From positions 1 to 36,794 of IMG/VR virus record IMGVR_UViG_3300009702_000009: 36,794 nt of DNA. The stretch is one strand, 5' to 3'. The position numbers and the translations under genes were made by a program. The notes beneath the pieces were generated by a model. That model made no database searches and was not told the origin of the DNA. It was given only the letters and a program-made list of their open reading frames with translations. Origin of the DNA: a virus. Positions 7,310 through 32,143 of this stretch are shown one piece after another (the first letter of the stretch is position 1; each line of letters begins with the position of its first letter).

Positions 7310-7440
7310 AATGTGGTAAAGAGTTTGTTTTAAAGGAAGCTCATATAAGATATAGGATAGAGAATTATTGTGATATTTTTTGTCATGCACGTTATGAAGC
7401 TAAGATATATGCTAGAATGCGTAATGAGAAAAGTTTATAA
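7285..7440 (+). CDS. Zinc-finger ORF (CxxC...CxxxC, TRASH/FCS-like) lacking a canonical start
   Basis: The frame open from 7285 reads ..KCLECGKEFVLKEAHIRYRIENYCDIFCHARYEAKIYARMRNEKSL. It contains no ATG/GTG/TTG and is the -1 frame of 7124..7309. Confidence 0.35.
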   Translation: MRKIPKCLECGKEFVLKEAHIRYRIENYCDIFCHARYEAKIYARMRNEKSL

Positions 7441-7443
7441 ATA
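7434..7443 (+). promoter_or_regulatory. TATA-box-like 10-mer TTTATAAATA
   Basis: Exact 10-mer, 22 nt upstream of ATG 7466. Confidence 0.55.
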
Positions 7444-7809: not shown

Positions 7810-7819
7810 TTTATAAATA
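7810..7819 (+). promoter_or_regulatory. TATA-box-like 10-mer TTTATAAATA with no ORF downstream
   Basis: Exact 10-mer, about 20 nt upstream of hairpin 7840-7886. Confidence 0.45.
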
Positions 7820-8866: not shown

Positions 8867-8876
8867 TTTATAAATA
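8867..8876 (+). promoter_or_regulatory. TATA-box-like 10-mer TTTATAAATA with no ORF downstream
   Basis: Exact 10-mer, 18 nt upstream of the outer stem of the 8895-9023 structure. Confidence 0.45.
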
Positions 8877-9058: not shown

Positions 9059-9068
9059 TTTATAAATA
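9059..9068 (+). promoter_or_regulatory. TATA-box-like 10-mer TTTATAAATA
   Basis: Exact 10-mer, 19 nt upstream of ATG 9088. Confidence 0.6.
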
Positions 9069-11237: not shown

Positions 11238-11282
11238 GTGATTATAATCTTTAAGTATTATAACCGAACATTAACTGCACAA

Positions 11283-11873
11283 ATGGTAAAATATAAGGAT
11301 AAAAATAAATTAATACCCTCAAATAAGCTCTCAGAGTATGCTAAAATAAGAGATTATAGCCAGTTATATATGATTAATCCTAAAGGGGAAGTAATAAGCT
11401 TAAAATCGCTTAGAAAACTTAAACAGACAAAAAACCATTATGGATATTTAGTTGTTAATTTATCTAAAAAAGGAAAAGTAAAACAATTTAAAGTACATAG
11501 ATTGATAGCTGAAACATTTATTTCTAATCCTTTAAATAAAAGAACTATTAATCATATTAATGGTATTAAAACTGATAATAGATTAGAAAACTTAGAGTGG
11601 AGTACTTATTCAGAGAATTTAAAACATAAATTCAGGGTATTAGGGTATATTAATAATCGACCTAATAAAGATAAATTTGGTAAGTTACACCACAATAGTA
11701 AGAAAGTAAATCAGTATGATAAGAATATGAATTTAATTAAAACTTGGGGTAGTTTGATGGATATACAGAGAGAGTTAAAAATAAATAATAGTTCTATAAG
11801 CAATGTATGTTTATTGAAACCTAATTATAGAACTGCTGGTGGGTTTATATGGAGGTATATAAATGGGAAATAA
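11283..11873 (+). CDS. HNH homing endonuclease (NUMOD4/HNH_3-like with C-terminal DNA-binding repeat)
   Basis: HYGYLVVNLSKKGKVKQFKVHRLIAETF...INHINGIKTDNRLENLEWSTYSENLKH, plus C-terminal ..LIKTWGSLMDIQRELKINNSSISNV..GGFIWRY. ATG 11283 preferred over GTG 11238. Confidence 0.7.
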   Translation: MVKYKDKNKLIPSNKLSEYAKIRDYSQLYMINPKGEVISLKSLRKLKQTKNHYGYLVVNLSKKGKVKQFKVHRLIAETFISNPLNKRTINHINGIKTDNRLENLEWSTYSENLKHKFRVLGYINNRPNKDKFGKLHHNSKKVNQYDKNMNLIKTWGSLMDIQRELKINNSSISNVCLLKPNYRTAGGFIWRYINGK

Positions 11874-12141
11874 TGTTAGAAAGGACATAAAACTTATTTC
11901 AACAGACAAATTAAAGGATTATGAGAAAAACAATAAAGTTCATACTGAGGAGCAAATATCCCTACTAGTACAAATAATCGACAAATTCGGCTTTACACAG
12001 CCTTTGTTAATTGACAAAAATAATGTAATTATAGCTGGACATGGGAGAAAAATAGCTGCAGACAAATTAGGGATGAATAAATTACCTTGTATTGTGATAG
12101 ATGATTTAACAGAGCACGAGATTAAAGGTGAATTACGATGA
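11863..12141 (+). CDS. ParB/sulfiredoxin-like domain protein (92 aa, domain only)
   Basis: DKLKDYEKNNKVHTEEQISLLVQIIDKFGFTQPLLID..NVIIAGHGRKIAADKLG fits the ParB N-terminal domain, including the GHxR motif. Confidence 0.6.
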   Translation: MGNNVRKDIKLISTDKLKDYEKNNKVHTEEQISLLVQIIDKFGFTQPLLIDKNNVIIAGHGRKIAADKLGMNKLPCIVIDDLTEHEIKGELR

Positions 12142-13632: not shown

Positions 13633-14055
13633 ATGAAGGTAGTTAAGACGGAGACTAAAGGAAAAAATTATATCATAACATTACATGTTGATGATAGGAA
13701 ATTGGACCCTATTAAAGGTATTGAACCTAGTGTGGAATTATTGAATAATTTCATATTTAATAGTAAGAAAGAAGCATTAGAGTTTTATAGTGCGATTATT
13801 GACCAGAATAATATGGCTATTGCTGATAATGAAACAAGATTGGCACAAATGCCTAGAGATTCATTAGAGAAAGTGAATGAATTTGCTGAAGCTATTAATA
13901 GACATAAAGCGTTAAGTAATAAGAAAGCTGATAAAATAAGTGACTTAATCAAAGCACATGACAATATGCGTTCATTTGAGAAAAATATAGTTGAGATAAC
14001 TAAAAAGAATAAAGAAGTTAGTGATATTATTAAAGCAATCAAAAAAAATAAATGA
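13633..14055 (+). CDS. Coiled-coil protein, possible small terminase subunit (position only)
   Basis: Stop overlaps the terminase ATG (ATGA). No diagnostic motif. Confidence 0.3.
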   Translation: MKVVKTETKGKNYIITLHVDDRKLDPIKGIEPSVELLNNFIFNSKKEALEFYSAIIDQNNMAIADNETRLAQMPRDSLEKVNEFAEAINRHKALSNKKADKISDLIKAHDNMRSFEKNIVEITKKNKEVSDIIKAIKKNK

Positions 14056-16541
14056 AATCAAAAATACCTATTGTGGATTTGAAAACTATAGCAATAGCAA
14101 TGAATAAATATAAAGATGAAGAAGAAAAATTCAAAGCCACATTAAGGTATTGGTTTTCATTTAAAGAGAATATTGCAACATTTAGTCAATTTTTATTTCC
14201 TGAGCATATTCAAGGAGAAGTACAAGATTTTCATAAAGAGTTTTATAAAACTTTCTTTAGAGCAGGTAATGATGCATTAGGAGCTCCAAGAGGACATGCA
14301 AAGCAGTTAGCTGACAGCACACCTATATTAACTCCAAAAGGGTGGACTACACATGGAGAGTTAAAAGTTGGTGATTATGTATATAGTCCAAGTGGTAAGG
14401 CTATCAAAGTTGTAGGTAAAAATAAAAAAACTAATTCTGATTTTGTTGTAACAACAAGAGATGGAGAACAAATAAGATGTCATGGTTATCACGAATGGAC
14501 AGTATTTGATAGAAATAAAAAGAAATTTGTAACTCTTGAAACTATTGATATGATTGATAAAGAATCTCAAAGAAGTAGATTCCAATTGCCTTTAAGAAAT
14601 CCTATTCAAGGAACTCATAAATCTTTAGATTTGGACCCTTATTTTTTAGGGATGTGGTTAGGGGATGGTTCTTCCACTAAACCTTGTATCACTCATTCAC
14701 CTTTAGATATGGATAGTGTTAATTCAATTCCTTATAATGTGTCTACAGTTTGTACTCATAATACTACAGGAGTATTAACGACTTATTTTTCAAATCAAAA
14801 TATTATTGAAACAATTCGTAAAATGGATTTATATAAAAATAAGCATATACCTAAAGAGTATTTAGAAAGTTCTTTAAATCAAAGATTGCAATTAATGGCA
14901 GGATTAATTGATTCAGATGGACATATTGATAAAAAAAGAGGGAGAATTAGGTTTGTTAATATTAATTATAATTTAATAAAAAATGTTGAAGAGTTAGCAT
15001 TATCATTAGGTTCACGACCATATATTACTCAACAAGACCCTAAATTAAATCCTTCTACAAAAGGTAAACAAATAGTTTATACTATAGCTTTTGACCCTAT
15101 TATTGATATTCCTACACGTTTAAAAAGGAAAAAGATTAGAAGATTTCCAAATAGACAAAGGTTAGGTATAACTTCAGTTGAGTATAAACCTAACGGGGAA
15201 AAAGGTAACTGTATTCAGGTTGATAGTGAAGATGGTCTATATTTGGCAGGAAGAAGACTAATACCTACACATAATAGTACAACAATAGGGATTATATTTA
15301 TATCATTTAATATTGTAAATAAGTTAGAGAGATATATTGTTTATATTTCACAGAATCATACTAAAACCGTTCAATTCATTGAACCATTAAGGTTTGAGTT
15401 CAAGAATAATAATCGGTTGAGGTGGTTATATGGTAATCTAGCTCCAACAGGTGCTAAAGATGATGATGGAAGAGATAGGGAAGATTGTGTTGATATTGAT
15501 GGAGTAAGGATTGAAGCTGTATCATTTGAGAAGAATCTTAGGGGTTTCAAGTTTGGGAATATGAGACCCACATTAATTGTTGGAGATGATATTGATTCTG
15601 ATGAAAGAGTAGTCAATCCAATATTAAGAGACAAAGATAGACATAAATTGTTTAGAGTAATTATACCTAGTTTAGATATTAATGGCAGAATAAAGATGGT
15701 AGGAACAATTATACATCATGATTGTTTACTAAATAATAGAATTAAAGCTTGGAACGGAAAAGTCTTTCGTGCTATTAATGATGGTATATCTTTATGGCCA
15801 GAAAGATTTACTCGAGAGAAATTATCTGAAATAAAGAAAGATATAGGTTCAGCAGCATTTGAATCAGAATATATGAATAACCCAATTGACAATTCTAGTG
15901 CACTAATTAAAAGAGAATGGGTTGAACAATGTTTAGAACCAGAGATAAGCGTAAGTGATTGTGATTTTGATGAAGTGTATTTAGGGGTGGATTTTGCATT
16001 TTCTGATAGAGTTTCAGCTGACCAGAGTGCATTTGGGGATATAGGTGTAAAGTATCATGATAATGGTCAAATAGATAAATTAATATTATTGAATGCAGAA
16101 TGGGCTAAAGGATTAAGTTTAAATCAACATTGGGAAAAGATTGAAAGAAAGTATTTAGCTAATAGGCATGACTTAGTTGTATTAGAAGAGAATAGTATTA
16201 AAGGTAGTGTAGAAGATATTAAACAACTCAATATTCCTTTTAAATTCTTTTGGATGGGTGCAAGAGACCCAAAGAATAATGAGAAATCTAGTTCATTTAC
16301 TAGTAAGACTATAGGCAAGATTAATGCGATTAATCGATTAGCTGTAAGTTTTGAATATAAGAGATGGTTAATCCCATATAAAACTCAAAGAGAACAAGAT
16401 ATAGCAAATAAATTAATAGCAGAACTAACTAGTTGGGGATTAGTTGATGGAAAATTAGAGGAGTTTGGAGTTCATCCTGATATGCCTGTTGCATTGATAA
16501 TGGTAAATGAAGCATTAAGAGGTAATACAGGAGTGGCTTAG
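14052..16541 (+). CDS. terL: Terminase large subunit precursor (505-aa extein plus 324-aa intein)
   Basis: Splicing would give the Walker A GAPRGHAK|STT. Walker B-like LIVGDDIDSDE. Nuclease-domain LGVDFAFSD. Confidence 0.85.
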   Translation: MKSKIPIVDLKTIAIAMNKYKDEEEKFKATLRYWFSFKENIATFSQFLFPEHIQGEVQDFHKEFYKTFFRAGNDALGAPRGHAKQLADSTPILTPKGWTTHGELKVGDYVYSPSGKAIKVVGKNKKTNSDFVVTTRDGEQIRCHGYHEWTVFDRNKKKFVTLETIDMIDKESQRSRFQLPLRNPIQGTHKSLDLDPYFLGMWLGDGSSTKPCITHSPLDMDSVNSIPYNVSTVCTHNTTGVLTTYFSNQNIIETIRKMDLYKNKHIPKEYLESSLNQRLQLMAGLIDSDGHIDKKRGRIRFVNINYNLIKNVEELALSLGSRPYITQQDPKLNPSTKGKQIVYTIAFDPIIDIPTRLKRKKIRRFPNRQRLGITSVEYKPNGEKGNCIQVDSEDGLYLAGRRLIPTHNSTTIGIIFISFNIVNKLERYIVYISQNHTKTVQFIEPLRFEFKNNNRLRWLYGNLAPTGAKDDDGRDREDCVDIDGVRIEAVSFEKNLRGFKFGNMRPTLIVGDDIDSDERVVNPILRDKDRHKLFRVIIPSLDINGRIKMVGTIIHHDCLLNNRIKAWNGKVFRAINDGISLWPERFTREKLSEIKKDIGSAAFESEYMNNPIDNSSALIKREWVEQCLEPEISVSDCDFDEVYLGVDFAFSDRVSADQSAFGDIGVKYHDNGQIDKLILLNAEWAKGLSLNQHWEKIERKYLANRHDLVVLEENSIKGSVEDIKQLNIPFKFFWMGARDPKNNEKSSSFTSKTIGKINAINRLAVSFEYKRWLIPYKTQREQDIANKLIAELTSWGLVDGKLEEFGVHPDMPVALIMVNEALRGNTGVA
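14304..15275 (+). mobile_element. Intein with LAGLIDADG homing endonuclease, class-3-like
   Basis: Block A QLADSTPILT. Block B ..HGYHEW (Trp codon 14496-14498). LAGLIDADG motifs LGMWLGDGSS and MAGLIDSDGHI. Block F GNCIQVD (Cys codon 15210-15212). Block G IPTHN|S (Thr codon 15267-15269, Asn 15273-15275). Confidence 0.8.
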
Positions 16542-16823: not shown

Positions 16824-16833
16824 TTTATAAATA
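16824..16833 (+). promoter_or_regulatory. TATA-box-like 10-mer TTTATAAATA
   Basis: Exact 10-mer, 26 nt upstream of ATG 16860. Confidence 0.5.
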
Positions 16834-16859: not shown

Positions 16860-18797
16860 ATGAAGATGGGTAATTATGAGATTGTTTATGAACCAGAATA
16901 CAAAGCCGAGAATATTAACAAACAAGTTGAAGATAATGTTGCTGAACATCAAGAGTCAATGAGTAATAGTCCTCAATATAAGGTTATTATCCCTCAATAT
17001 ATGTATAAACCTGCATGGGGATTCCCTAGATATCAACCTTTAGGATTATTAAGACAATTAGGAAAAAACGTATATGCGTCAAGCATTTTCAAAACAATTA
17101 AAGATGTTATTATTGATACACCTAGAAAAGTTGTTGCTAAAGAAGGTATTGATGTTGATGAAGAACTTCAAAAGAAAATAGATGAATATCAGTTGTTTTT
17201 TGAAAGACCTAATCCTGAAGAAACATTTAGTTCATTTATTAGAAAAGTATTAGATGATATATTCAAATATGATTCAGGAGTAATTAATAAAGTATTTAAC
17301 CTTGCAGGGGAATTGATACAACTTAGAGCAGCACCAGGTGATACATTCAAAAAGAATCCAAACAAACGTGGATATTTGGATGAAAGAGATGATATAATTT
17401 TAGATAAAACACCTAGTAACGCATTAATTGAAGCGAATAAGAATCCAAGGAATATGGAAAATGGGTTTGCTAATACGGCAGCATTTCAATTTTATACAAA
17501 TTTTATTGATAAAGCTGCATATTTTCAGTTTGTTAATAGTGTAGCATCACAAATACCTATTCCTTATGGAAAAAGAGAATTATGTTGGCTTACAAGTAAC
17601 CCTTCAACAGATAATGTTTATACTAATGGTGCTCCATTAGAAGATGCAATAGATTTAATTCTTAGTTTAATTTATGGTTTAAAATTCAATTTAGATTTCT
17701 ATATGAATGGAAATACTCCTGAAGGGATTGTTAATGCTGTTGGTGCAACAAAGAAAGATTTAGCAAAGATTAAGGACCAATTAAATTTAAGTATTAACAC
17801 TCCAAGAGACCAATTTGGATTAAAGAGACGTATAGGATATAGAATGCCTATTGTTAATATGGATAATTTAGATTTTGTTAAATTGAATATGACAAGTAAA
17901 GAGATGGAAATACTTGAACAGCAGAAATGGTTTACTAAGATTCTTTGGATGAGATTTGGAGTTAATGCTGATGAAATGGGTTTTACCGAAAATAGTAATA
18001 GGGCAACATCAGGGCAACAAACTAAGAACAGTATAAGAAAAAGTATTAAACCTATTTATGTTATGATAGAAGAATGTTTCACATATGATATTTTATCTGA
18101 ATTTGAAGATGGAGATAAATTAAGGTTTGAATTTGATTTTTATGACCCTATAGACCAAAAAGAGATTAGGGATTTACAACAACAAGAGATATCTATGGGT
18201 ATTAATAGTGCTCGAAATATTATGAATGAAGAAGGAATTAATGCTGATGAGATAGAGAGTCAGAATCAAGATGCACAAGAGTTTGATTTCAATTTAAATA
18301 ATCCTGATGTACCTGAAGAGAATAATCCTTTTCCTAATGAGATGGATAAAGCAGATAAAAAAGAGAAAGAGAAACCTGAGACTAAATCCTTTACTACAAC
18401 AACAGGAGGTACAGGAACAACAGATAATGTAATGAACCCAATATATACTGATAGAAAAACAATTATTAAAAAGAATGGGAAATGGGTAGAAGATAAAGAG
18501 ACACGTCATGAAACTAAAGCAGAGGACACACCTGATGTTCCATTGGAAACCCCCTTAGAAAAAGTTATGGGAATGTTTATTAAAAAGATTGATGCCAAGA
18601 ATAAAGAGATTATAGAGGATTCAGAAGATTATGAAAATGAAATAGATGATGTGGAATTAAAACACAAATATATTAAACGAACAGGTAACATGGGGAATTA
18701 TAAATATTTTTATAGAGACAATAAGACGGGTAAAATCTTTCAAGGGTCTGCACCTAAAAAAGAAAGATATATGAAGAAATGGACGAATATGAATTAG
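16860..18797 (+). CDS. Portal protein with a long C-terminal extension
   Basis: 645 aa, immediately after the terminase region. Assigned by size and position. The C-terminal about 170 aa are acidic or low-complexity and carry the capsid-like segment. Confidence 0.65.
   Translation: MKMGNYEIVYEPEYKAENINKQVEDNVAEHQESMSNSPQYKVIIPQYMYKPAWGFPRYQPLGLLRQLGKNVYASSIFKTIKDVIIDTPRKVVAKEGIDVDEELQKKIDEYQLFFERPNPEETFSSFIRKVLDDIFKYDSGVINKVFNLAGELIQLRAAPGDTFKKNPNKRGYLDERDDIILDKTPSNALIEANKNPRNMENGFANTAAFQFYTNFIDKAAYFQFVNSVASQIPIPYGKRELCWLTSNPSTDNVYTNGAPLEDAIDLILSLIYGLKFNLDFYMNGNTPEGIVNAVGATKKDLAKIKDQLNLSINTPRDQFGLKRRIGYRMPIVNMDNLDFVKLNMTSKEMEILEQQKWFTKILWMRFGVNADEMGFTENSNRATSGQQTKNSIRKSIKPIYVMIEECFTYDILSEFEDGDKLRFEFDFYDPIDQKEIRDLQQQEISMGINSARNIMNEEGINADEIESQNQDAQEFDFNLNNPDVPEENNPFPNEMDKADKKEKEKPETKSFTTTTGGTGTTDNVMNPIYTDRKTIIKKNGKWVEDKETRHETKAEDTPDVPLETPLEKVMGMFIKKIDAKNKEIIEDSEDYENEIDDVELKHKYIKRTGNMGNYKYFYRDNKTGKIFQGSAPKKERYMKKWTNMN
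18378..18439 (+). repeat. 62-nt repeat, copy in the portal gene
   Basis: 60/62 identical to 28624-28685. Encodes ETKSFTTTTGGTGTTDNVMNP. Confidence 0.9.
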
Positions 18798-18982: not shown

Positions 18983-18992
18983 TTTATAAATA
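18983..18992 (+). promoter_or_regulatory. TATA-box-like 10-mer TTTATAAATA
   Basis: Exact 10-mer, 19 nt upstream of ATG 19012. Confidence 0.55.
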
Positions 18993-19812: not shown

Positions 19813-20325
19813 ATGGTAGAAACATTAACAAAAGAATATTTGAGTAAATTATATTACAAACAAAACAAAAGTTATAGAGATTTAGCTAAAATTACAGGTT
19901 TAAGTACTACAACAATTAGGAAGCGTTTTAAAGATTGGGGATTCAAATCTAGAAGTTTAAAAGAATCTTGTAAATTAAGATGTGAATTAAAACCTCAAAC
20001 TAATCCTGGAAGAAAAAATATGCCTAAAAATCCTAATTATGGAAAAGCTAATCATGCTTATAAAAAAGGGTATTGGATTAATGTTCACGGATACAAGAAG
20101 ATTTCAGTTGATGGAGAGGAAAGAATAGAACATAGATATATTTGGGAGCAGTTTCATCAAAAACCTATTCCTCCTAGACATCAAATACATCATATTAATG
20201 GGGATAAGTTAGATAATAGAATAGAGAATTTACAATGCATGACTAATTCGGAGCATCAAAAGTTACATAATCAACCAAGAGAAGAAACGACTGGAAGATT
20301 TATAAATAAGGAAGATGAGGAATAA
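19813..20325 (+). CDS. HNH endonuclease with N-terminal HTH
   Basis: SYRDLAKITGLSTTTIRKRF (HTH) and HQIHHINGDKLDNRIENLQCMTNSEHQKLH (HNH). Confidence 0.7.
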   Translation: MVETLTKEYLSKLYYKQNKSYRDLAKITGLSTTTIRKRFKDWGFKSRSLKESCKLRCELKPQTNPGRKNMPKNPNYGKANHAYKKGYWINVHGYKKISVDGEERIEHRYIWEQFHQKPIPPRHQIHHINGDKLDNRIENLQCMTNSEHQKLHNQPREETTGRFINKEDEE

Positions 20326-20722: not shown

Positions 20723-20732
20723 TTTATAAATA
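20723..20732 (+). promoter_or_regulatory. TATA-box-like 10-mer TTTATAAATA
   Basis: Exact 10-mer, 19 nt upstream of ATG 20752. Confidence 0.6.
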
Positions 20733-21352: not shown

Positions 21353-24300
21353 ATGACTAATCACACAATAAGCTCTAATACTGATATAAATACTTTCAAT
21401 AACACTGTTACATGGGTTAATGGAGATACAATAACTATCAATACTGATATTACATTTACTATTGATGAACCAAATATCAGTAGTAGAATAAATAAATATC
21501 TTTATACGCACACAGTAAGTGGGATATTACTTCTTGATGGAACAAGTATAAGAGAAATGGATTATGATGGAGGGACTCTTTCTGCAGTTCCAACATTAGG
21601 GGATACTATAACAGGAGGGACTAGCGGTGCAACAGGGACTGTTGTTTTTTTAAATTCTACAGCTTCAACTGTTTCAGGAAATATGCTTATTAAAGGAATT
21701 TCAGGTCAATTTGAAGATAATGAGACTTTAACATTTACAACTCCAACAGGTTCTGCATTAGCTAATGGTAATGGGGTTTCTGGAACTGTTACAACAGCTG
21801 ATGCTACAGGAACAACATTAACAGATAGTACTGCAACATTTATTACACGTGGAGTGAAAGAAGGAGAGTACATTTTAAATACTACAGATGGAAGTATAGG
21901 AAAAATAACTAATGTTGATAGTGAAACTCAATTAACTTGTGAAGTATTAACAGGTGGAACAGGTAATGATTTTGGTTTATCTGATGCTTATAAAATAAGT
22001 GCCGATAGGAGAGGTTGGATTCAATATGCATCTAAAGATGACACTTCAGGAAATACTATTGTTGGAGTAGGAACTCTTAAAGTCACAGGGGAATGGTATT
22101 CATTAGGAAGAAGTACAGGATTAGCATCACAAACATTTACACATTATACTTCTGATTATGTACCTTTTGTAGAAATAGAAACAAGTGCAGGAAGTGGTGT
22201 TTATGAAGTTTGGTTAAATGCTTCTCGTTCAGGATTAACAACAGTTGGAATTGGGGATACAGGAAGGTTTTTTGTTTCTATTACAGGGAGTTCAACTCTT
22301 ACTTTTGGAGATGGTGTAAATGGTGAAATTCCTCCCACTAATGCAAATGTAAGAGTACCAAATGTTCACTGGAGTCAAGCAGATACAACTTCTTGGCCAG
22401 CAATAAAAATGCATGCAACATATTATTATCGTGTTTCTGTAGCTATTCAAAATTTAGATTTGGATACATTTAGTGGAGGTAGTTTGTATATGAATACTCA
22501 AACATCTACTGCAGTATCTCAAAAACTTTATAATTGTAAAATTTTTAACTCTGGATTTTCTCAAAGAGTTCTGATAAATGACCCAATACAAAGTACAAAT
22601 ATAGATGGGTGTTATGTTGGTAGTCCTGACCCTGCTGCTACAAATAATAATATATCATCAGTTTTTGGTGGATTTAGTAGAGGTACAATGACTTCAATAA
22701 ACAAATTTTATTCTTCAGGATATTATTCATCTGCACAAGTGCCTATTTCTAATTGTAATAACGCAACATTAACAAATATTAAATTTTTTAAACAAACTAG
22801 AGGAGGTACTGGTTATTATGGATTTGTATTTTCTAGTAATAGAAATACCAAAATAATAGGATTAACGTTAGTGGGAGCATTAGTAAGTTTAACAAGTTGT
22901 CCTGGTTGTTCATTTGAGAATATAAAATTCTCATGTGAGCCTACTGGGATAAAGAAAACTTCATCTGGTGCGTATGGAATACTGTTTGATGGAGGTAGTT
23001 TTGAGAATTTCATATTGAAAGGGTATGAATATACAAACCCTGGTGCTCCATCTTATCTTGGAGATATTAATATTTCATCAGGTTTTGGAACTGGATTAGT
23101 TATAAGAGATATTGGTTCTTATTCAACACCGATAGATTTAGATACTCATGCTCCGTTTATTGTAAGATTATCAGGAAATTTTCAGGACCCTCTTGTTGCA
23201 AGAGTATATGTTAAAAATAATAGAGTTACTTCTCCTTATGTACCAATTGCTTTTTACACTTATGGTGCTGCTAGGAGTCCTCAAACATATAATTGTGCAA
23301 CTTATCATGATACTTTAGCAAATGTAGGATTTCAACGTGTATATTCAAAAACTACACCAAGAGGAATAAGAACAAACTTTTTGAATTATGGCGCAGGAAA
23401 TTATGATTTAGACAATTATAGTTTACCTGATGATACCATATTTTATGATGGTTTTAAATCAGATACAACAGGTGTGGTGTCTTTTACTCAAGGTTCTGTA
23501 TTAGAACTTACAGCATATAAAACTTTTACAGGGAGTGTAATTTTTACAGGGGGCAGTTCTGGAGACCAGTTTAGTTCATCAGGAGCAACAATAACATGGG
23601 AATGTCCTAGTATAGTATATGGTCATACGGGATTAACAGGTTATACTGTTGGTGGTTCTATAAATTCATATTCAACGAAGGATTATCAAATAGACACAGG
23701 TTCAGGATGGAGTAGTTGGAAAACATTAAATACAACTAATCTTACTTCTGAGACTATTTCGTCTTCTACAGGATTTAAATTGAAAGTCAGATTGACTTCA
23801 ACTACTTCAAGTACAAAATCATTAAATTATGTAGAGATTCAAACTACAACTACTTTAGCTGACCAAAGGGATAATACTGTTGATATTGATACTTTTGATT
23901 TAACATTAACAGGGGTTTTAAGTGGTTCTAATTATAGAATTGAAAAAAATATTGATGGAACACTTTTAGCATCAGGAACTGCAACAGCAGACCAAGTAGT
24001 TAAAGTTAATACTACAACTGGAGCAGTAATGGATATTCTTATTGGTAAAGACCAATATAAAAGATTTGTTACAAGTGCTATAGCTGCTTCACTAGGTGTT
24101 GAATCATTTATATCTCAAATTTCTGATACTTTTAGAACTGTGAGTGATATTGTAGCAAATGCTTATACAGGAATAGCAATAAATGGTACAGCTAAGACTG
24201 TGACTATAACAACAGCTCATACTCATCAAGAATTATATGATTATTGTAAGGCCTGGGCTATTCAGACAAATAATTTACAATATGATGTTCCTCTTACAAC

Positions 24301-27244
24301 TGTTGATGGAGTAACTTTTAATCAAACTTCAGGGTGGAGTATCATTATTAGTGGTAGTGGAAAATTAACTAGTATTACTACTGATGTTGATGGGACAATA
24401 ACTGTTAGTAGTGGTGGATTTTATGAAGGTGTGTCAGGTGTTAAATGGGAGAATACAGGAAGTGTTTATTATGCATCTCATTTTTGGACTAATATTAAAG
24501 ATAATTCTTCCAATCTTGATTTACAAAATTGTATTATTGCTTATGTTGAAACAGATACTGATAGTGACCAAACTTATAACACCTCATTAGTTAAAGGAGG
24601 ATTATTAAGTGATGTTAATGGAAATGTTGAAGGGTATGTTGTTTATAAAGTAGATACTACCACTTATTCAGGGCATAAAGAAATAGTTGGAGAATACAAT
24701 TATGTATGGAGTAGTATTCCTAAAAGTTTTAATGGAGGACAAGTAGGAACACCTTCATCTTATAATGGTGTAAGGCTAAATGTTGATTCTCATATTTCTA
24801 AAACTAAAGCTAACGCATTATTAGTTTCAGGAATTACAACCAATCATACAACATCAACTTTAGATGCTTCAAGTAATGTGTATCAAGACGTTTATGATAA
24901 CCTTAAAGCTAGACAAACACGAGTAGCAGATATAGAAACTGGAAAAGCAGGATATATGAGTTTTTATAGTGTTGGTTTGATTTTATCGTATGATGGAACT
25001 TTTTATTCTCTTATTGATACTTGGATTATTCAGAATATTGGAGGCACAGGAACATTAAAGAATGGAACGGCAGAATTAGGAACGGCAGGAACCATAAGTT
25101 TTGATTTTCAAGATGTTGATTTAGATTATACTGTTATAGGCACTTTTGACCATAGAGGGAGAGTTATGGGTGGAACTATAACTTTCGATAACACTAGTGG
25201 AGGGAATGTTACTGCTCAAATTGATGCAGGAGTTGTTTACGTTAATAATGGCCCTAACATTACTGTTGAACAAGGAACTATAAGCACAGGAATTAATTTC
25301 ACTGGATTAATTAGTGGGAGTCAAGTTTATGTTTTTGCTACAGGGACTCAAACTGTTAAAACTTTTATTGAGAGTAGTGGAACTTCTTATTTATGGAGTG
25401 AAACATGGGTATCTGACCAAACTGTAGATTATACTATTATCAATGAAGGATATTTACCTGTAAGAGTTACTGGAGTAGTTGCTAGTACATCTATTCAAAC
25501 AATACCAATAAATCAAATTGTTGATAGGGCTTATCAGAGTAGTTCAGGTCTTACATTTGGAACAACTGCAACAGTAAATACTACTACTAAAATATTTGGA
25601 TTAACTGTGACTTCAACAGTTCAAAATTGGTATAGTTTCATGATGGAAAGTTGGAGAAGTGAAAGTACACTTAAGAATGTTCAATTCCCTCTTAGTGCTA
25701 ATGGCCCAAATAGTTTCACATTAAAAGAATATGAATGGGATGCTACTAGTAGTATTAATAATCTTACAAGTGATGGAATGAGATATACTGATGCTAGTGA
25801 TGTATTAACTGCGAGTTGGTGTGGAATTTTATCTATTGGAGATGTTACAGGATTACAAATTAAATATCAACAACAAGATGGACTTAATACTACTAATGCT
25901 CTAACAACAGGACCAATAAACCAATTAATACAGATTTATGGAGATGCTACTCACGGTAATTTTGATTATACAGGGCATATGGTATTAAAGATTCAAGAGG
26001 ATGGTTATGACCAAGCTGATAGTGATTTAGTTAATATTTTTGGAACTTTAGAAGACCAATTTTATGTTACAGGTTTATTACCTTTAAGCAATGGATTGAC
26101 AACAGGAGACCCTAGTGTTACAGGAGTTACAATAACTGACCACGGTGCATCTCCTGTAACCTGGAATGGAAAATCTTTTTCAATAACTATAACTGATAGT
26201 GCAACAGCTCACACAGGTACTGAGATTATGCGTTGGATAAGATATAATCTTAGTTTAGGAGGAACATTTCAGGGTAAAGATGCGTTTAATTGGCATGATT
26301 TAGTGCAAATAGATGGTTCAAAATTCAAAACAGTTAGAGGCGAGATTTATGGGGACATAGGAGCAACAATAAAAGGAGTTAGAGTTGTACAAAATGATGG
26401 AACAACAGCACATCTTGATTTTAGTAAATTTGAAGCAGATGATGGAACATTTTATGTGCCTCCTGTAATTTTACCTGCTACAATTTCTAGTTTAGTTGCA
26501 GGAAGTAGGGTTCAAGTATATAATGTTACAACTTCTACTGAGGTATTCAATGATATAGTTGCAGGAACAACTTATTCTGTTAATTATACAGAAGGAGTAG
26601 ATTATACTGCAGGAGATACTGTAAGGATAAGAGTTGCTTATGTAAGTGGAACAACTGCAAAAGAAGGATGGAATACTAATGTGATTGCAACTTCAAGTGG
26701 TTGGAGTACAGTTGCTGCACAAGTAGATGATGATGTATATAATACTAATGCTGTTGATGGTTCATTAATTACAAAATTTACAGCAGATTATATTAGTGAT
26801 GAAATAGATTTATCTGCTGATTCTAATTTCACATCACAAGAGGCTTATGCATTTTATATGTATAGTGTATTTACTGCACCAGGTATAGAACAATTTTATG
26901 GCGGTGTAGAGGCAATTGATACAGGTAACTATAAAATTCTTACATCAGTATTGAATTTATATTTTGATAATACTACAACTGCATCCCATAGACAAACAGA
27001 TTCTGCAAGAATATTTAGAGATGATGGAACATATCCTGTTAAAGACCCTACAACAAGTGCATTTGGAATTGATGTGAATTGGATGACACCTGTAAATGTT
27101 GTTGAAGTTAATACAGGTTCAGCAGTTAATAAGACAACAGTTAAAGATGCATTAACTGAACAAGGATATACAACAACAAGAGCACCTAAGATAGATGATA
27201 TTGATAAAGCATTAACAACAAGCAAATTTATAGCACTAAAATAA
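21353..27244 (+). CDS. Giant (1963 aa) virion-associated beta-helix / adhesin-like protein
   Basis: AGGTGA upstream of the ATG. T/S/G/N-rich. The segment about 22745-23040 (NCNNATLTNIKFF...NTKIIGLTLVG...CSFENIKFS...GILFDGGSFENFILKG) looks like parallel beta-helix repeats. Confidence 0.6.
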   Translation: MTNHTISSNTDINTFNNTVTWVNGDTITINTDITFTIDEPNISSRINKYLYTHTVSGILLLDGTSIREMDYDGGTLSAVPTLGDTITGGTSGATGTVVFLNSTASTVSGNMLIKGISGQFEDNETLTFTTPTGSALANGNGVSGTVTTADATGTTLTDSTATFITRGVKEGEYILNTTDGSIGKITNVDSETQLTCEVLTGGTGNDFGLSDAYKISADRRGWIQYASKDDTSGNTIVGVGTLKVTGEWYSLGRSTGLASQTFTHYTSDYVPFVEIETSAGSGVYEVWLNASRSGLTTVGIGDTGRFFVSITGSSTLTFGDGVNGEIPPTNANVRVPNVHWSQADTTSWPAIKMHATYYYRVSVAIQNLDLDTFSGGSLYMNTQTSTAVSQKLYNCKIFNSGFSQRVLINDPIQSTNIDGCYVGSPDPAATNNNISSVFGGFSRGTMTSINKFYSSGYYSSAQVPISNCNNATLTNIKFFKQTRGGTGYYGFVFSSNRNTKIIGLTLVGALVSLTSCPGCSFENIKFSCEPTGIKKTSSGAYGILFDGGSFENFILKGYEYTNPGAPSYLGDINISSGFGTGLVIRDIGSYSTPIDLDTHAPFIVRLSGNFQDPLVARVYVKNNRVTSPYVPIAFYTYGAARSPQTYNCATYHDTLANVGFQRVYSKTTPRGIRTNFLNYGAGNYDLDNYSLPDDTIFYDGFKSDTTGVVSFTQGSVLELTAYKTFTGSVIFTGGSSGDQFSSSGATITWECPSIVYGHTGLTGYTVGGSINSYSTKDYQIDTGSGWSSWKTLNTTNLTSETISSSTGFKLKVRLTSTTSSTKSLNYVEIQTTTTLADQRDNTVDIDTFDLTLTGVLSGSNYRIEKNIDGTLLASGTATADQVVKVNTTTGAVMDILIGKDQYKRFVTSAIAASLGVESFISQISDTFRTVSDIVANAYTGIAINGTAKTVTITTAHTHQELYDYCKAWAIQTNNLQYDVPLTTVDGVTFNQTSGWSIIISGSGKLTSITTDVDGTITVSSGGFYEGVSGVKWENTGSVYYASHFWTNIKDNSSNLDLQNCIIAYVETDTDSDQTYNTSLVKGGLLSDVNGNVEGYVVYKVDTTTYSGHKEIVGEYNYVWSSIPKSFNGGQVGTPSSYNGVRLNVDSHISKTKANALLVSGITTNHTTSTLDASSNVYQDVYDNLKARQTRVADIETGKAGYMSFYSVGLILSYDGTFYSLIDTWIIQNIGGTGTLKNGTAELGTAGTISFDFQDVDLDYTVIGTFDHRGRVMGGTITFDNTSGGNVTAQIDAGVVYVNNGPNITVEQGTISTGINFTGLISGSQVYVFATGTQTVKTFIESSGTSYLWSETWVSDQTVDYTIINEGYLPVRVTGVVASTSIQTIPINQIVDRAYQSSSGLTFGTTATVNTTTKIFGLTVTSTVQNWYSFMMESWRSESTLKNVQFPLSANGPNSFTLKEYEWDATSSINNLTSDGMRYTDASDVLTASWCGILSIGDVTGLQIKYQQQDGLNTTNALTTGPINQLIQIYGDATHGNFDYTGHMVLKIQEDGYDQADSDLVNIFGTLEDQFYVTGLLPLSNGLTTGDPSVTGVTITDHGASPVTWNGKSFSITITDSATAHTGTEIMRWIRYNLSLGGTFQGKDAFNWHDLVQIDGSKFKTVRGEIYGDIGATIKGVRVVQNDGTTAHLDFSKFEADDGTFYVPPVILPATISSLVAGSRVQVYNVTTSTEVFNDIVAGTTYSVNYTEGVDYTAGDTVRIRVAYVSGTTAKEGWNTNVIATSSGWSTVAAQVDDDVYNTNAVDGSLITKFTADYISDEIDLSADSNFTSQEAYAFYMYSVFTAPGIEQFYGGVEAIDTGNYKILTSVLNLYFDNTTTASHRQTDSARIFRDDGTYPVKDPTTSAFGIDVNWMTPVNVVEVNTGSAVNKTTVKDALTEQGYTTTRAPKIDDIDKALTTSKFIALK

Positions 27245-30463: not shown

Positions 30464-30473
30464 TTTATAAATA
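30464..30473 (+). promoter_or_regulatory. TATA-box-like 10-mer TTTATAAATA
   Basis: Exact 10-mer, 20 nt upstream of ATG 30494. Confidence 0.6.
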
Positions 30474-31334: not shown

Positions 31335-31700
31335 ATGGCAACGATAATTAGTAGTGATGATTTCACTGCAAACGCTTTAGCAGACAATAGTGTTGATGTT
31401 ACAAGAATCCCTATAACTAAAACTTTAACTGGAAATGGGGATGAAATATTAACTGAAGGGACATCTGAAGTAATTTCAGTTATATTACATAAGAGAAAAC
31501 CCATTCTTTTATCAAATGAACAAGGATTAGAGATATTATCTGATGCTTATATCATGACAGGACCCTCTCAGGCTTTAAATAGAGATGATAAAATAACATT
31601 CGGTACTGAGAATTATAGGGTAATTAATAAACCTATTGTGAGGGGTCCTAGTGGAGACACTGTTTTTTATAAATACGCCGATATGGTATTTTTAAGCTAA
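31335..31700 (+). CDS. Head closure / neck protein (position)
   Basis: 121-aa ORF in the connector block. Confidence 0.4.
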   Translation: MATIISSDDFTANALADNSVDVTRIPITKTLTGNGDEILTEGTSEVISVILHKRKPILLSNEQGLEILSDAYIMTGPSQALNRDDKITFGTENYRVINKPIVRGPSGDTVFYKYADMVFLS

Positions 31701-32133: not shown

Positions 32134-32143
32134 TTTATAAATA
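32134..32143 (+). promoter_or_regulatory. TATA-box-like 10-mer TTTATAAATA
   Basis: Exact 10-mer upstream of the tail operon (GTG 32195). Confidence 0.5.

Follow-up and report, generated by a model that had tools for sequence, protein, structure and literature searches.

We conclude, with a probability of about 0.88, that positions 14304-15275 of the window (the whole 36,794-nucleotide stretch of viral DNA analyzed here) encode a bipartite, mobile class 3 intein, which is inserted in the large terminase subunit (TerL) between the Lys and the Ser of the Walker A motif and is predicted to use class 3 splicing chemistry. The open reading frame at 14052-16541, on the plus strand like the parts of the gene described below, specifies an 829-amino acid TerL precursor, and the insert is an in-frame segment of 972 bp, or 324 amino acids, running from QLADSTPILT to LIPTHN. 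It is preceded by GAPRGHAK and followed by STTIG, splitting the Walker A lysine (Lys84) from the next serine. The N-extein (TerL amino acids 1-84; 14052-14303) ends in PRGHAK, with Pro79 at 14286 and Lys84 at 14301-14303. The intein itself (Gln1 to Asn324), as judged by phmmer, Pfam, AF2, and Foldseek, combines a Hint splicing domain and, nested within it, a LAGLIDADG endonuclease, and the C-extein (15276-16541, including the stop codon) starts with Ser+1 (AGT, 15276-15278), the Walker A serine, which is followed by Thr.

The boundaries of the insert are defined by an intein-less allele of the terminase, P0036 (506 amino acids, 79% identical), in which GAPRGHAK runs directly into STTIG in both the protein and the DNA; the empty site in the L003 DNA reads …GGACACGCTAAG immediately followed by TCTACAACAATAGGT…. 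The site carries no insert in 115 of the 120 best TerL homologues and is occupied in only five. The first-pass annotation had placed the insert at 14304-15275, and this proved right to the base, since the intein-less allele has exactly the junction it predicted; the codons it assigned to Gln1 (CAG, 14304-14306), Trp65 (TGG, 14496-14498), Cys303 (TGT, 15210-15212), and Thr322 (ACA, 15267-15269) were likewise exact. Alignment did not move the junctions elsewhere, and the intein-less alleles bear out the expectation that removal of the insert restores the P-loop. The description of the restored loop as canonical needs a minor adjustment: the sequence obtained is PRGHAKS, the Walker A variant of this TerL family, in which Ala replaces the second Gly of the classical motif. 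This variant is conserved across the intein-less homologues, among which Ala78, Pro79, Arg80, and Lys84 are invariant. A class 1 intein with shifted boundaries was rejected because the junction has no Cys, Ser, or Thr in its vicinity and its position is set by the empty allele, and a free-standing endonuclease gene or a non-splicing domain insertion was rejected on the strength of the Hint fold and the exact junctions. Composition did not set the insert apart from its host gene (GC content of 29.8% in the intein vs 31.0% in the extein), and a foreign origin judged on this basis was rejected.

On the evidence of sequence comparison and a modeled fold, the host protein is the TerL of a tailed virus. 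This identification rests on PHROGs, fold search, and synteny, because a Pfam scan of the spliced extein found no terminase domain (the scans of precursor, insert, and extein gave LAGLIDADG domains only) and PDB sequences gave no match to a profile built from the intein-less TerL family. The spliced protein matched PHROG 38 (terminase large subunit) at 7e-54, and a portal gene lies directly downstream of TerL (16860-18797). When the AF2 model of P0036, of moderate confidence (pLDDT 70), was searched with Foldseek, the top 30 matches were all terminases, among them 8dgc_E (4.5e-15) and T4 gp17 (3.2e-13). These results fit a TerL that has an N-terminal ASCE ATPase containing Walker A and a C-terminal RNase H-like nuclease and whose gene neighbors that of the portal. 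In tblastn searches against cultured phages, TerL was at most 28% identical to any protein found, and these matches came from phages of unrelated hosts. Assemblies of two independent samples each yielded the same protein, in genomes of ~32-37 kb that otherwise look complete. The annotation of this gene can be corrected: the terminase would have 505 amino acids once spliced, and automatic pipelines call the precursor just a LAGLIDADG endonuclease.

The splicing domain was detected only by comparison with solved structures and by fold search. The best sequence matches among solved structures, obtained with phmmer, were the class 3 DnaB inteins 6BS8 (E 1.5e-12) and 6RIX (E 1.8e-9), together with 6RIY, and the alignments to 6BS8 and 6RIX span both the N- and the C-terminal splicing segments. 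Block A (QLADSTPILTPKG; 14304-14342), which has the non-nucleophilic Gln at position 1, aligns with 6BS8 residues 2-14. Block B (amino acids 54-67, ending in IRCHGYHEWTV; 14463-14504) contains Cys59 (B:6), His60 (B:7), His63 (B:10), and Trp65 (B:12), and its HEW corresponds to HQW in 6BS8, with His63 opposite His65 and Trp65 opposite Trp67. Block F (amino acids 300-315, KGNCIQVDSEDGLYLA; 15201-15248) contains Cys303 (F:4), the predicted initiating nucleophile, within NCIQVD, which aligns with RCVEVD in 6BS8, and block G (amino acids 318-324, RLIPTHN; 15255-15275) provides Thr322 (G:5), His323 (G:6), and Asn324 (G:7), IPTHN being aligned with VPTHN. Trp65, Cys303, and Thr322 therefore align residue for residue with Trp67, Cys118, and Thr137 of 6BS8, the published triad of that intein, in which C118A abolishes splicing (PMC6195587). 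Identity to characterized class 3 inteins in the splicing blocks is ~30-40%.

The AF2 model of the 324-amino acid insert was of high quality (pLDDT 94, pTM 0.91), and a Foldseek search with it returned PI-SceI over its full length (E 7e-19, query TM 0.73), 6BS8 over the splicing domain (target TM 0.82-0.86), and also gp41-1 and the hedgehog domain 1AT0. By phmmer, AF2, and Foldseek the insert has a Hint fold and the splicing blocks A, B, F, and G, and its aligned sequence has the class 3 features, namely the Trp/Cys/Thr (WCT) triplet, a non-nucleophilic position 1, Ser+1, His B:10, and a C-terminal His-Asn. Both the Hint blocks and the WCT signature of class 3 had been proposed in the first-pass annotation, and both are supported by the alignments to 6BS8 and 6RIX and by the structural homology. 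The comparison with intein profiles that it suggested gave a divided outcome: the alignments to 6BS8 and 6RIX matched, but the Hint and intein models of Pfam (scanned with precursor and insert) and NCBIfam gave no match to the splicing domain, the NCBIfam search returning only sub-threshold matches via intein-containing models and a weak match to a T7-type terminase. We consider the assignment to class 3 by homology well supported.

An exhaustive search recovered 17,743 representative relatives of the intein, including 1,501 representative clusters at E ≤ 1e-30, and the majority of the nearest relatives are located in terminases. The WCT triplet is carried by 139 of the 143 nearest representative relatives. 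With intein N-termini set by local anchoring, position 1 of these 139, as measured here, is Leu in 54, Gln in 37, Ala in 18, Glu in 12, Lys in 8, and Pro in 4, and is Cys, Ser, or Thr in only two; the residue preceding the intein is Lys in 127. Lack of a Cys, Ser, or Thr nucleophile at position 1 is usual, though not obligatory, in class 3 inteins. Among the 143 relatives, the +1 residue is Ser in 125 and Thr in 15, His B:10 is present in 141, Trp B:12 in 142, and Cys F:4 in 141, and the Thr, His, and Asn of block G are found in 141, 140, and 141, respectively. The more distant class 1 relatives, which start with Cys1, have neither Trp B:12 nor Cys F:4. The relatives thus show the covariation by which class 3 is defined (PMC2807308). 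Given the 6BS8 and 6RIX matches, the 17,743 relatives, and the exact junction in an empty allele that is 79% identical, the intein is no chance resemblance.

These numbers also bear on how rare the intein is. The combination with Gln1 had been called unusual at first pass, but Gln is the second commonest residue at position 1 among the WCT relatives, and published work has already placed LAGLIDADG-bearing class 3 inteins in the P-loops of phage terminases (PMC2807308, PMC5050341, bioRxiv 10.1101/2025.01.02.630785). Nor does the description of a compact test case fit, as the intein has 324 amino acids with a nested endonuclease and class 3 mini-inteins of ~139 amino acids have already been crystallized (6BS8). 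The intein belongs to a large, already described kind; a class 3 intein at the classic terminase Walker A Lys/Ser site is a situation documented since 2010 and matters little alone. What the search does bring out is the very large size of the class 3 clade in metagenomes and the dominance of Leu and Gln at its position 1, where the inteins studied have Ala or Pro. Our literature search located no explicit published list of class 3 position-1 residues.

The endonuclease domain, of the LAGLIDADG (DOD) type, occupies about amino acids 101-284 (14604-15155) and was matched above cut-offs by both Pfam LAGLIDADG_3 (8.7e-10) and Hom_end (2.1e-7). The two LAGLIDADG motifs claimed at first pass were both found: motif 1 (LGMWLGDG from amino acid 115; 14640-14669) contains Asp121, and motif 2 (LMAGLIDSDG from amino acid 197; 14892-14921) contains Asp205. 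These two acidic residues are accompanied by the conserved block D lysine, Lys180 (14841-14843), which is invariant among relatives, and Gly122, Asp203, and Gly206 are conserved in at least 90%. Intein residues 180-271 align with residues 301-396 of PI-SceI, placing Lys180 opposite PI-SceI residue 301. Further, the distribution of the intein among TerL alleles is patchy, and intein and extein identities are incongruent: P0035 and P0155 share 67% identity in the intein vs 50% in the extein, and P0035 and P0042 share 37% in the intein vs 67% in the extein. Occupied alleles persist in TerL lineages that are only 50% identical. As in the extein (pN/pS 0.25), purifying selection acts on both domains of the intein, where pN/pS is 0.24 in Hint-N, 0.17 in Hint-C, and 0.30 in the endonuclease; the values are approximate because they come from a single DNA comparison in which synonymous sites are saturated. 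Homing studies could draw on natural material here, in the form of paired occupied and empty alleles and of two intein lineages that share a single site.

From homology we infer both the splicing chemistry and the endonuclease activity. Translation would give the 829-amino acid precursor with a broken ATP-binding loop. Because position 1 is Gln, no (thio)ester could form at the intein N terminus. Instead, Cys303 would attack the peptide bond between Lys84 and Gln1, helped by His63 and Trp65, as expected from the homologous inteins DnaBi1 of M. smegmatis and DnaB of mycobacteriophage Bethlehem. The N-extein would be placed on a block F thioester branch and then transferred to the hydroxyl of Ser+1, cyclization of Asn324, aided by His323, would free the intein, and an O-to-N acyl shift would yield the 505-amino acid terminase with an intact PRGHAKST loop. 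The endonuclease, with Asp121, Asp205, and Lys180, is predicted to cut the P-loop coding sequence of intein-less alleles during co-infection, and repair of the cut allele would copy the intein in.

A non-nucleophilic position 1 would also suit a class 2-like route, in which Ser+1 attacks the N-terminal junction directly and Cys303 has a structural or activating part with no thioester branch. The class 2 KlbA inteins have such a position 1, and modeling of the Bethlehem intein puts the +1 residue at a distance from the scissile bond hardly greater than that of Cys F:4 (PMC2807308). However, the known class 2 inteins are all KlbA orthologues with Cys+1 and Ser G:6 and without WCT (PMC4031507), whereas the intein here has Ser+1, His G:6, and the full triad, and Cys F:4 is absolutely required in the nearest characterized relatives (PMC2807308, PMC6195587), which makes this route highly improbable. 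The same missing nucleophile, the silence of the curated Pfam and NCBIfam Hint models, and the metagenomic source, with its unproven viability, could be taken to mean that the insertion is decaying or dead for splicing and that the terminase allele, possibly the genome, is defective. We rate this the least likely of the alternatives, since all residues known to be essential in class 3 inteins are present, both domains are under purifying selection similar to that on the extein, the same protein came from two independent samples with complete-looking genomes, and homologous occupied alleles persist across divergent TerL lineages. The class 3 intein is probably functional.

Besides being a selfish element, the intein could act as a conditional switch, with reversible oxidation of Cys303, perhaps together with Cys59 (B:6), delaying terminase maturation and so the timing of packaging. 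The M. smegmatis DnaBi1 intein offers a precedent, being reversibly inhibited by a disulfide between the catalytic Cys118 and a second intein cysteine (PMC6195587), and Cys B:6 occurs in 83 of the 143 relatives, so that by analogy this clade-conserved cysteine might serve as a redox gate on terminase maturation. Against this, the argument is purely by analogy, Cys59 and M. smegmatis Cys48 occupy different positions, and 60 of the 143 relatives have no Cys B:6; we give such a switch a very slim chance.

The class 3 intein described here is most readily compared with those of M. smegmatis DnaBi1 (6BS8) and M. chimaera DnaB-1 (6RIX/6RIY), with which its splicing-domain fold agrees (target TM 0.72-0.86) and with which it has in common the WCT triad, His B:10, the C-terminal THN, Ser+1, and a site in an ATPase P-loop. 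These are, however, mini-inteins of 139-145 amino acids without an endonuclease, hosted by a bacterial replicative helicase, and their first residue is Ala, while block B reads DxxH in them and HxxH in the TerL intein. Because its His B:7 differs from the residue in studied inteins (Asp in the M. smegmatis intein, Ser in the Bethlehem intein), active-site details may differ from those examples. The mycobacteriophage Bethlehem DnaB intein, the class 3 prototype, is of similar size (341 amino acids) and likewise phage-borne, with a non-nucleophilic position 1, the WCT triad, and Ser/Thr at +1; likened here by description, it differs in residing in DnaB rather than TerL, in starting with Pro, and in having Ser B:7. 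The mechanism proposed for the TerL intein was demonstrated in the Bethlehem intein, and the block F branched intermediate and the requirement for Cys F:4 were established for the Bethlehem DnaB and Dra Snf2 inteins (PMC2807308). The class 3 LAGLIDADG inteins of actinobacteriophage TerL proteins (Kelley 2016, PMC5050341; Gosselin 2025, bioRxiv 10.1101/2025.01.02.630785) reside in the same type of host protein and resemble the intein here in bipartite architecture and in a sporadic, horizontally moving distribution. They and the "classic" Lys/Thr P-loop site TerL1-a share with the intein here a type of insertion point that follows the invariant Walker A Lys and precedes the next residue, Ser/Thr, the likeness to TerL1-a being one of site; class 3 was assigned to sites TerL1-c, -d, and -e (Kelley 2016, PMC5050341). 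Those inteins are found in high-GC actinophages with Terminase_1 or Terminase_6-like TerL, whereas the intein here is in an uncultured virus of 30% GC whose TerL is so distant from those of cultured phages. PI-SceI (the yeast VMA1 intein, 1VDE/1EF0), whose structure matched best over the full length, likewise joins a Hint domain to a LAGLIDADG endonuclease in a bipartite architecture but is a eukaryotic class 1 intein with Cys1 and Cys+1, an extra DNA-recognition region, and ~15-17% identity.

The host of the virus, taken to be apparently archaeal at first pass, is relevant to the taxonomic range of these inteins. Relatives of TerL occur in MAG bins of Heimdallarchaeaceae, Woesearchaeota, and Bacillota. 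A TATA-like motif, TTTATAAATA, is enriched upstream of genes and placed as for leaderless transcripts, which is only suggestive of an archaeal host; scans of the viral genome for sigma-70 promoters and intrinsic terminators showed no enrichment, and Pfam scans of the viral proteins found no host-diagnostic domains. On account of the relatives' MAG bins and the TATA box-like TTTATAAATA motif, the virus could infect an archaeon (e.g. DPANN or Asgard), with a Gln/Leu-1, CHxxHxW class 3 clade circulating among archaeal tailed viruses, a reading that we regard as doubtful. If it were true, class 3, regarded as phage and bacterial in origin, would extend into the archaeal virosphere, and its inteins would span a wider range of taxa. 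A scan of the GTDB representative genomes gave a single match, a Bacillota MAG contig.

The + strand ORF at 14052-16541 comprises 829 codons and contains an insert (14304-15275) that translates into 324 residues, QLADSTPILT ... LIPTHN, with GAPRGHAK before it and STTIG after it. When the codons were checked against the sequence, every coordinate in the first-pass annotation was exact: on the + strand, Gln1 (CAG) lies at 14304-14306, Trp65 (TGG) at 14496-14498, Cys303 (TGT) at 15210-15212 and Thr322 (ACA) at 15267-15269, followed by His323, Asn324 and then Ser+1 (AGT, 15276-15278). The G+C content of the insert (29.8%) and that of the remainder of the terminase gene (31.0%) are alike. A search of a 5.8-billion-protein collection with the spliced sequence gave, among the matches listed, the window's own terminase (P0035) and 119 further homologues; 115 of these 120 best TerL proteins are ~500-550 aa long and 5 are ~823-839 aa long. 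The closest intein-less allele among the matches listed, P0036, is 79% identical and reads without a gap ...GNDALGAPRGHAKSTTIGIVFISW..., and its DNA can be aligned with that of the window through the Lys|Ser junction with every codon in register. We conclude from the gapless protein and the DNA alignment that the 972 bp were inserted cleanly and in frame between Lys and Ser of Walker A. The claim that removal of the insert restores the P-loop is thus upheld, and the restored loop, PRGHAKS, is the Walker A variant of the TerL family itself, with A78, P79, R80 and K84 invariant in the intein-less homologues.

The 505 aa that remain after splicing have a match in PHROG 38 (terminase large subunit) at 7e-54; the terminase protein was recognized neither by Pfam nor by a PDB sequence profile search. 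Its identity is corroborated by the portal gene directly downstream (16860-18797) and by the AlphaFold model of P0036 (moderate confidence, pLDDT 70), for which all 30 of the 30 best PDB matches are large terminases, including those of PhiV-1 (4.5e-15), T4 (gp17), Sf6 (gp2) and HK97.

The insert alone matches parts of other terminase PHROGs, e.g. phrog_36964 at 4e-38, which evidently contain inteins. Pfam matched only its endonuclease part (LAGLIDADG_3, 8.7e-10; Hom_end, 2.1e-7), where the two LAGLIDADG motifs begin at intein residues 115 and 197. In a sequence search of all PDB entries, the top matches were the class 3 DnaB mini-inteins 6BS8 of M. smegmatis (1.5e-12) and 6RIX and 6RIY of M. 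chimaera, and the yeast intein PI-SceI matched the central region. In the alignments with the class 3 DnaB inteins, HEW corresponds to HQW, NCIQVD to RCVEVD and IPTHN to VPTHN, so that Trp65, Cys303 and Thr322 align exactly with Trp67, Cys118 and Thr137, the triad of 6BS8, in which C118A abolishes splicing (PMC6195587). The AlphaFold model of the insert, built with 25 homologues, is confident (pLDDT 94, pTM 0.91). Foldseek placed the whole model on PI-SceI (E 7e-19, query TM 0.73), its splicing domain on 6BS8 (target TM 0.82-0.86) and its central domain on I-DmoI. The endonuclease keeps the motif-terminal Asp121 and Asp205 as well as the family-invariant Lys180, which aligns with PI-SceI residue 301. 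Homology therefore supports the structural and mechanistic interpretation of the insert, which has every class 3 hallmark that could be tested, in line with the class originally proposed.

When 1.84 billion representative proteins were searched exhaustively with phmmer, 17,743 intein relatives had E <= 1e-3, of which 1,501 had E <= 1e-30, and the diagnostic positions were mapped on the 143 best complete representative relatives. The WCT triad (Trp B:12, Cys F:4, Thr G:5) is complete in 139 of the 143, His B:10 is present in 141, His G:6 in 140 and Asn G:7 in 141; residue +1 is Ser in 125, Thr in 15 and Cys in 2. Among the 139 WCT relatives, residue -1 is Lys in 127, and position 1 is Leu (54), Gln (37), Ala (18), Glu (12), Lys (8), Pro (4) or one of a few others, with Cys, Ser or Thr in only 2. 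Gln, behind Leu only, is thus the second commonest first residue of the clade and no oddity, and the view of Gln1 as unusual is not supported. More distant relatives with Cys1 lack both Trp B:12 and Cys F:4, a pattern that reproduces the covariation by which class 3 was first defined (PMC2807308). Further, Terminase_6C was found in 32 and Terminase_6N in 26 of the 52 nearest relatives scanned, indicating that the terminase P-loop is the usual home of this clade.

Class 3 inteins in TerL have been described, with a "classic" insertion into the P-loop of mycobacteriophage TerL that separates the invariant Lys from the nucleophilic Thr (Kelley et al. 2016, PMC5050341), and a preprint reports 287 class 3 inteins in actinophages, nearly all in TerL and Cas4 and most with canonical LAGLIDADG endonucleases (Gosselin et al. 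2025, bioRxiv 10.1101/2025.01.02.630785). The window's intein adds a member to this known kind, and the "unusual combination" suggested by the first-pass annotation is not borne out, since Gln1 occurs often and the setting in a terminase is well known.

We note some variation among the relatives. A subgroup of P0002, P0008, P0013 and P0164 has MPPRH-KLADST... at the junction, with one residue fewer than the usual form, MPPRHGK-xLADST. These relatives have either lost the Walker A Gly and have no equivalent of intein position 1, or they start the intein with Lys, in which case GK would be absent from the spliced loop. Several intein-matching stretches occur in one polypeptide in P0277 (1,896 aa; six) and in P0259, P0280 and P0284 (four each), which, judged by these matches, are multi-intein host proteins. 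P0017 and P0019 (448 aa each), both WCT relatives that begin with Ala, carry a Cys+1 (THN followed by CV); Cys+1 is rare in class 3, where only the Bvi IcmO intein is named (PMC5222942). Their C-exteins start CVTGDT and CVSGDT, resembling block A of a further intein.

The Lys|Ser site is occupied in only 5 of the 120 best TerL homologues, by two intein lineages: the window's lineage (P0038 and P0155, both Gln1, and P0129, Leu1) and a second one (P0042, Ala1, and P0147, Leu1) that is 33-38% identical to the first (37% to the window's own intein), has CNxxHxW as block B and resides in terminases 54-67% identical to that of the window. Because the P0042 and P0147 inteins lie at exactly the window's P-loop site, one target is common to two class 3 lineages. 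Extein and intein identities are discordant, being 50 and 67% for P0035/P0155, 67 and 37% for P0035/P0042 and 69 and 33% for P0129/P0147, respectively, which is the pattern that would be expected of a homing element moving between alleles and re-invading the same site.

By homology, the split in its Walker A loop would leave the precursor inactive. We infer that Cys303 (F:4), assisted by His63 and Trp65, would attack the Lys84-Gln1 amide to form a block F thioester branch, that the N-extein would then pass to Ser+1, and that cyclization of Asn324 would release the intein before an O-to-N shift forms the peptide bond and restores the PRGHAKST loop; the published class 3 pathway follows the same route (PMC2807308, PMC4031507, PMC5222942). 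A class 2-like route, in which Ser+1 would attack directly, is less well supported than this class 3 route, given the aligned WCT triad. A dead insertion is likewise less well supported. In one comparison of the window gene with that of P0038 (L007), in which synonymous divergence was saturated, pN/pS was 0.24 for Hint-N, 0.30 for the endonuclease, 0.17 for Hint-C and 0.25 for the exteins; non-synonymous divergence was low against synonymous divergence in every part, and splicing and endonuclease functions thus both appear to be maintained. Further, independent assemblies of two samples yielded the identical precursor. An added role as a redox switch, by analogy with M. smegmatis DnaBi1 and its Cys48-Cys118 disulfide (PMC6195587), also has less support than class 3 splicing as such. 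Block B of the clade reads C-H-x-x-H-x-W, with Cys B:6 in 83 and His B:7 in 104 of the 143 relatives; in the window, this conserved Cys59-His60 pair (14478-14483, +) lies just upstream of the catalytic His B:10. Position B:7 is His in the window's intein, whereas the M. smegmatis intein has DxxH and characterized class 3 inteins have Asp or Ser. By analogy with DnaBi1 Cys48, the pair could supply Cys F:4 with a redox partner.

The window is a tailed-virus genome encoding a portal, a prohead protease, an SU10-type capsid protein, a tail tube and a tape-measure-like protein, with no close cultured phage (best identity, 28%). Its terminase relatives are binned with Heimdallarchaeaceae, Woesearchaeota and Bacillota MAGs, and among the GTDB representative genomes a single one matches, a Bacillota MAG. 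Promoter and terminator scans of the window revealed no enrichment of sigma-70-type promoters or intrinsic terminators. There are 15 copies of the motif TTTATAAATA where 1.55 would be expected, a count reached in 0 of 100 shuffles, with + strand copies at 1221-1230, 7434-7443, 7810-7819, 8867-8876, 9059-9068, 16824-16833, 18983-18992, 20299-20308, 20723-20732, 30464-30473, 31666-31675 and 32134-32143. For copies with a mapped start codon, the motif precedes the + strand start by 29-36 nt, in most cases with no Shine-Dalgarno sequence in between. It looks like a promoter element of the virus and may be a TATA box of the archaeal type serving leaderless mRNAs, but an AT-rich bacterial -10 element would fit too. 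On these findings, the host may be archaeal, as suggested in the first-pass annotation, or bacterial.

A 1,963-aa ORF (21353-27244, +), with the head-morphogenesis genes on one side and the prohead protease on the other, occupies 16% of the genome and has zero matches in Pfam or PHROG. Beside the LAGLIDADG enzyme of the intein, the window contains two free-standing HNH endonuclease genes on the + strand, one (19813-20325; HTH and HNH_3, 2e-16) within the head-morphogenesis module and the other at 11238-11873 (NUMOD4 and HNH_3). The latter has as neighbours a short ORF that matches DNA_methylase weakly and a ParB_N ORF (11863-12141), and the region around it may be a disrupted methylase region.
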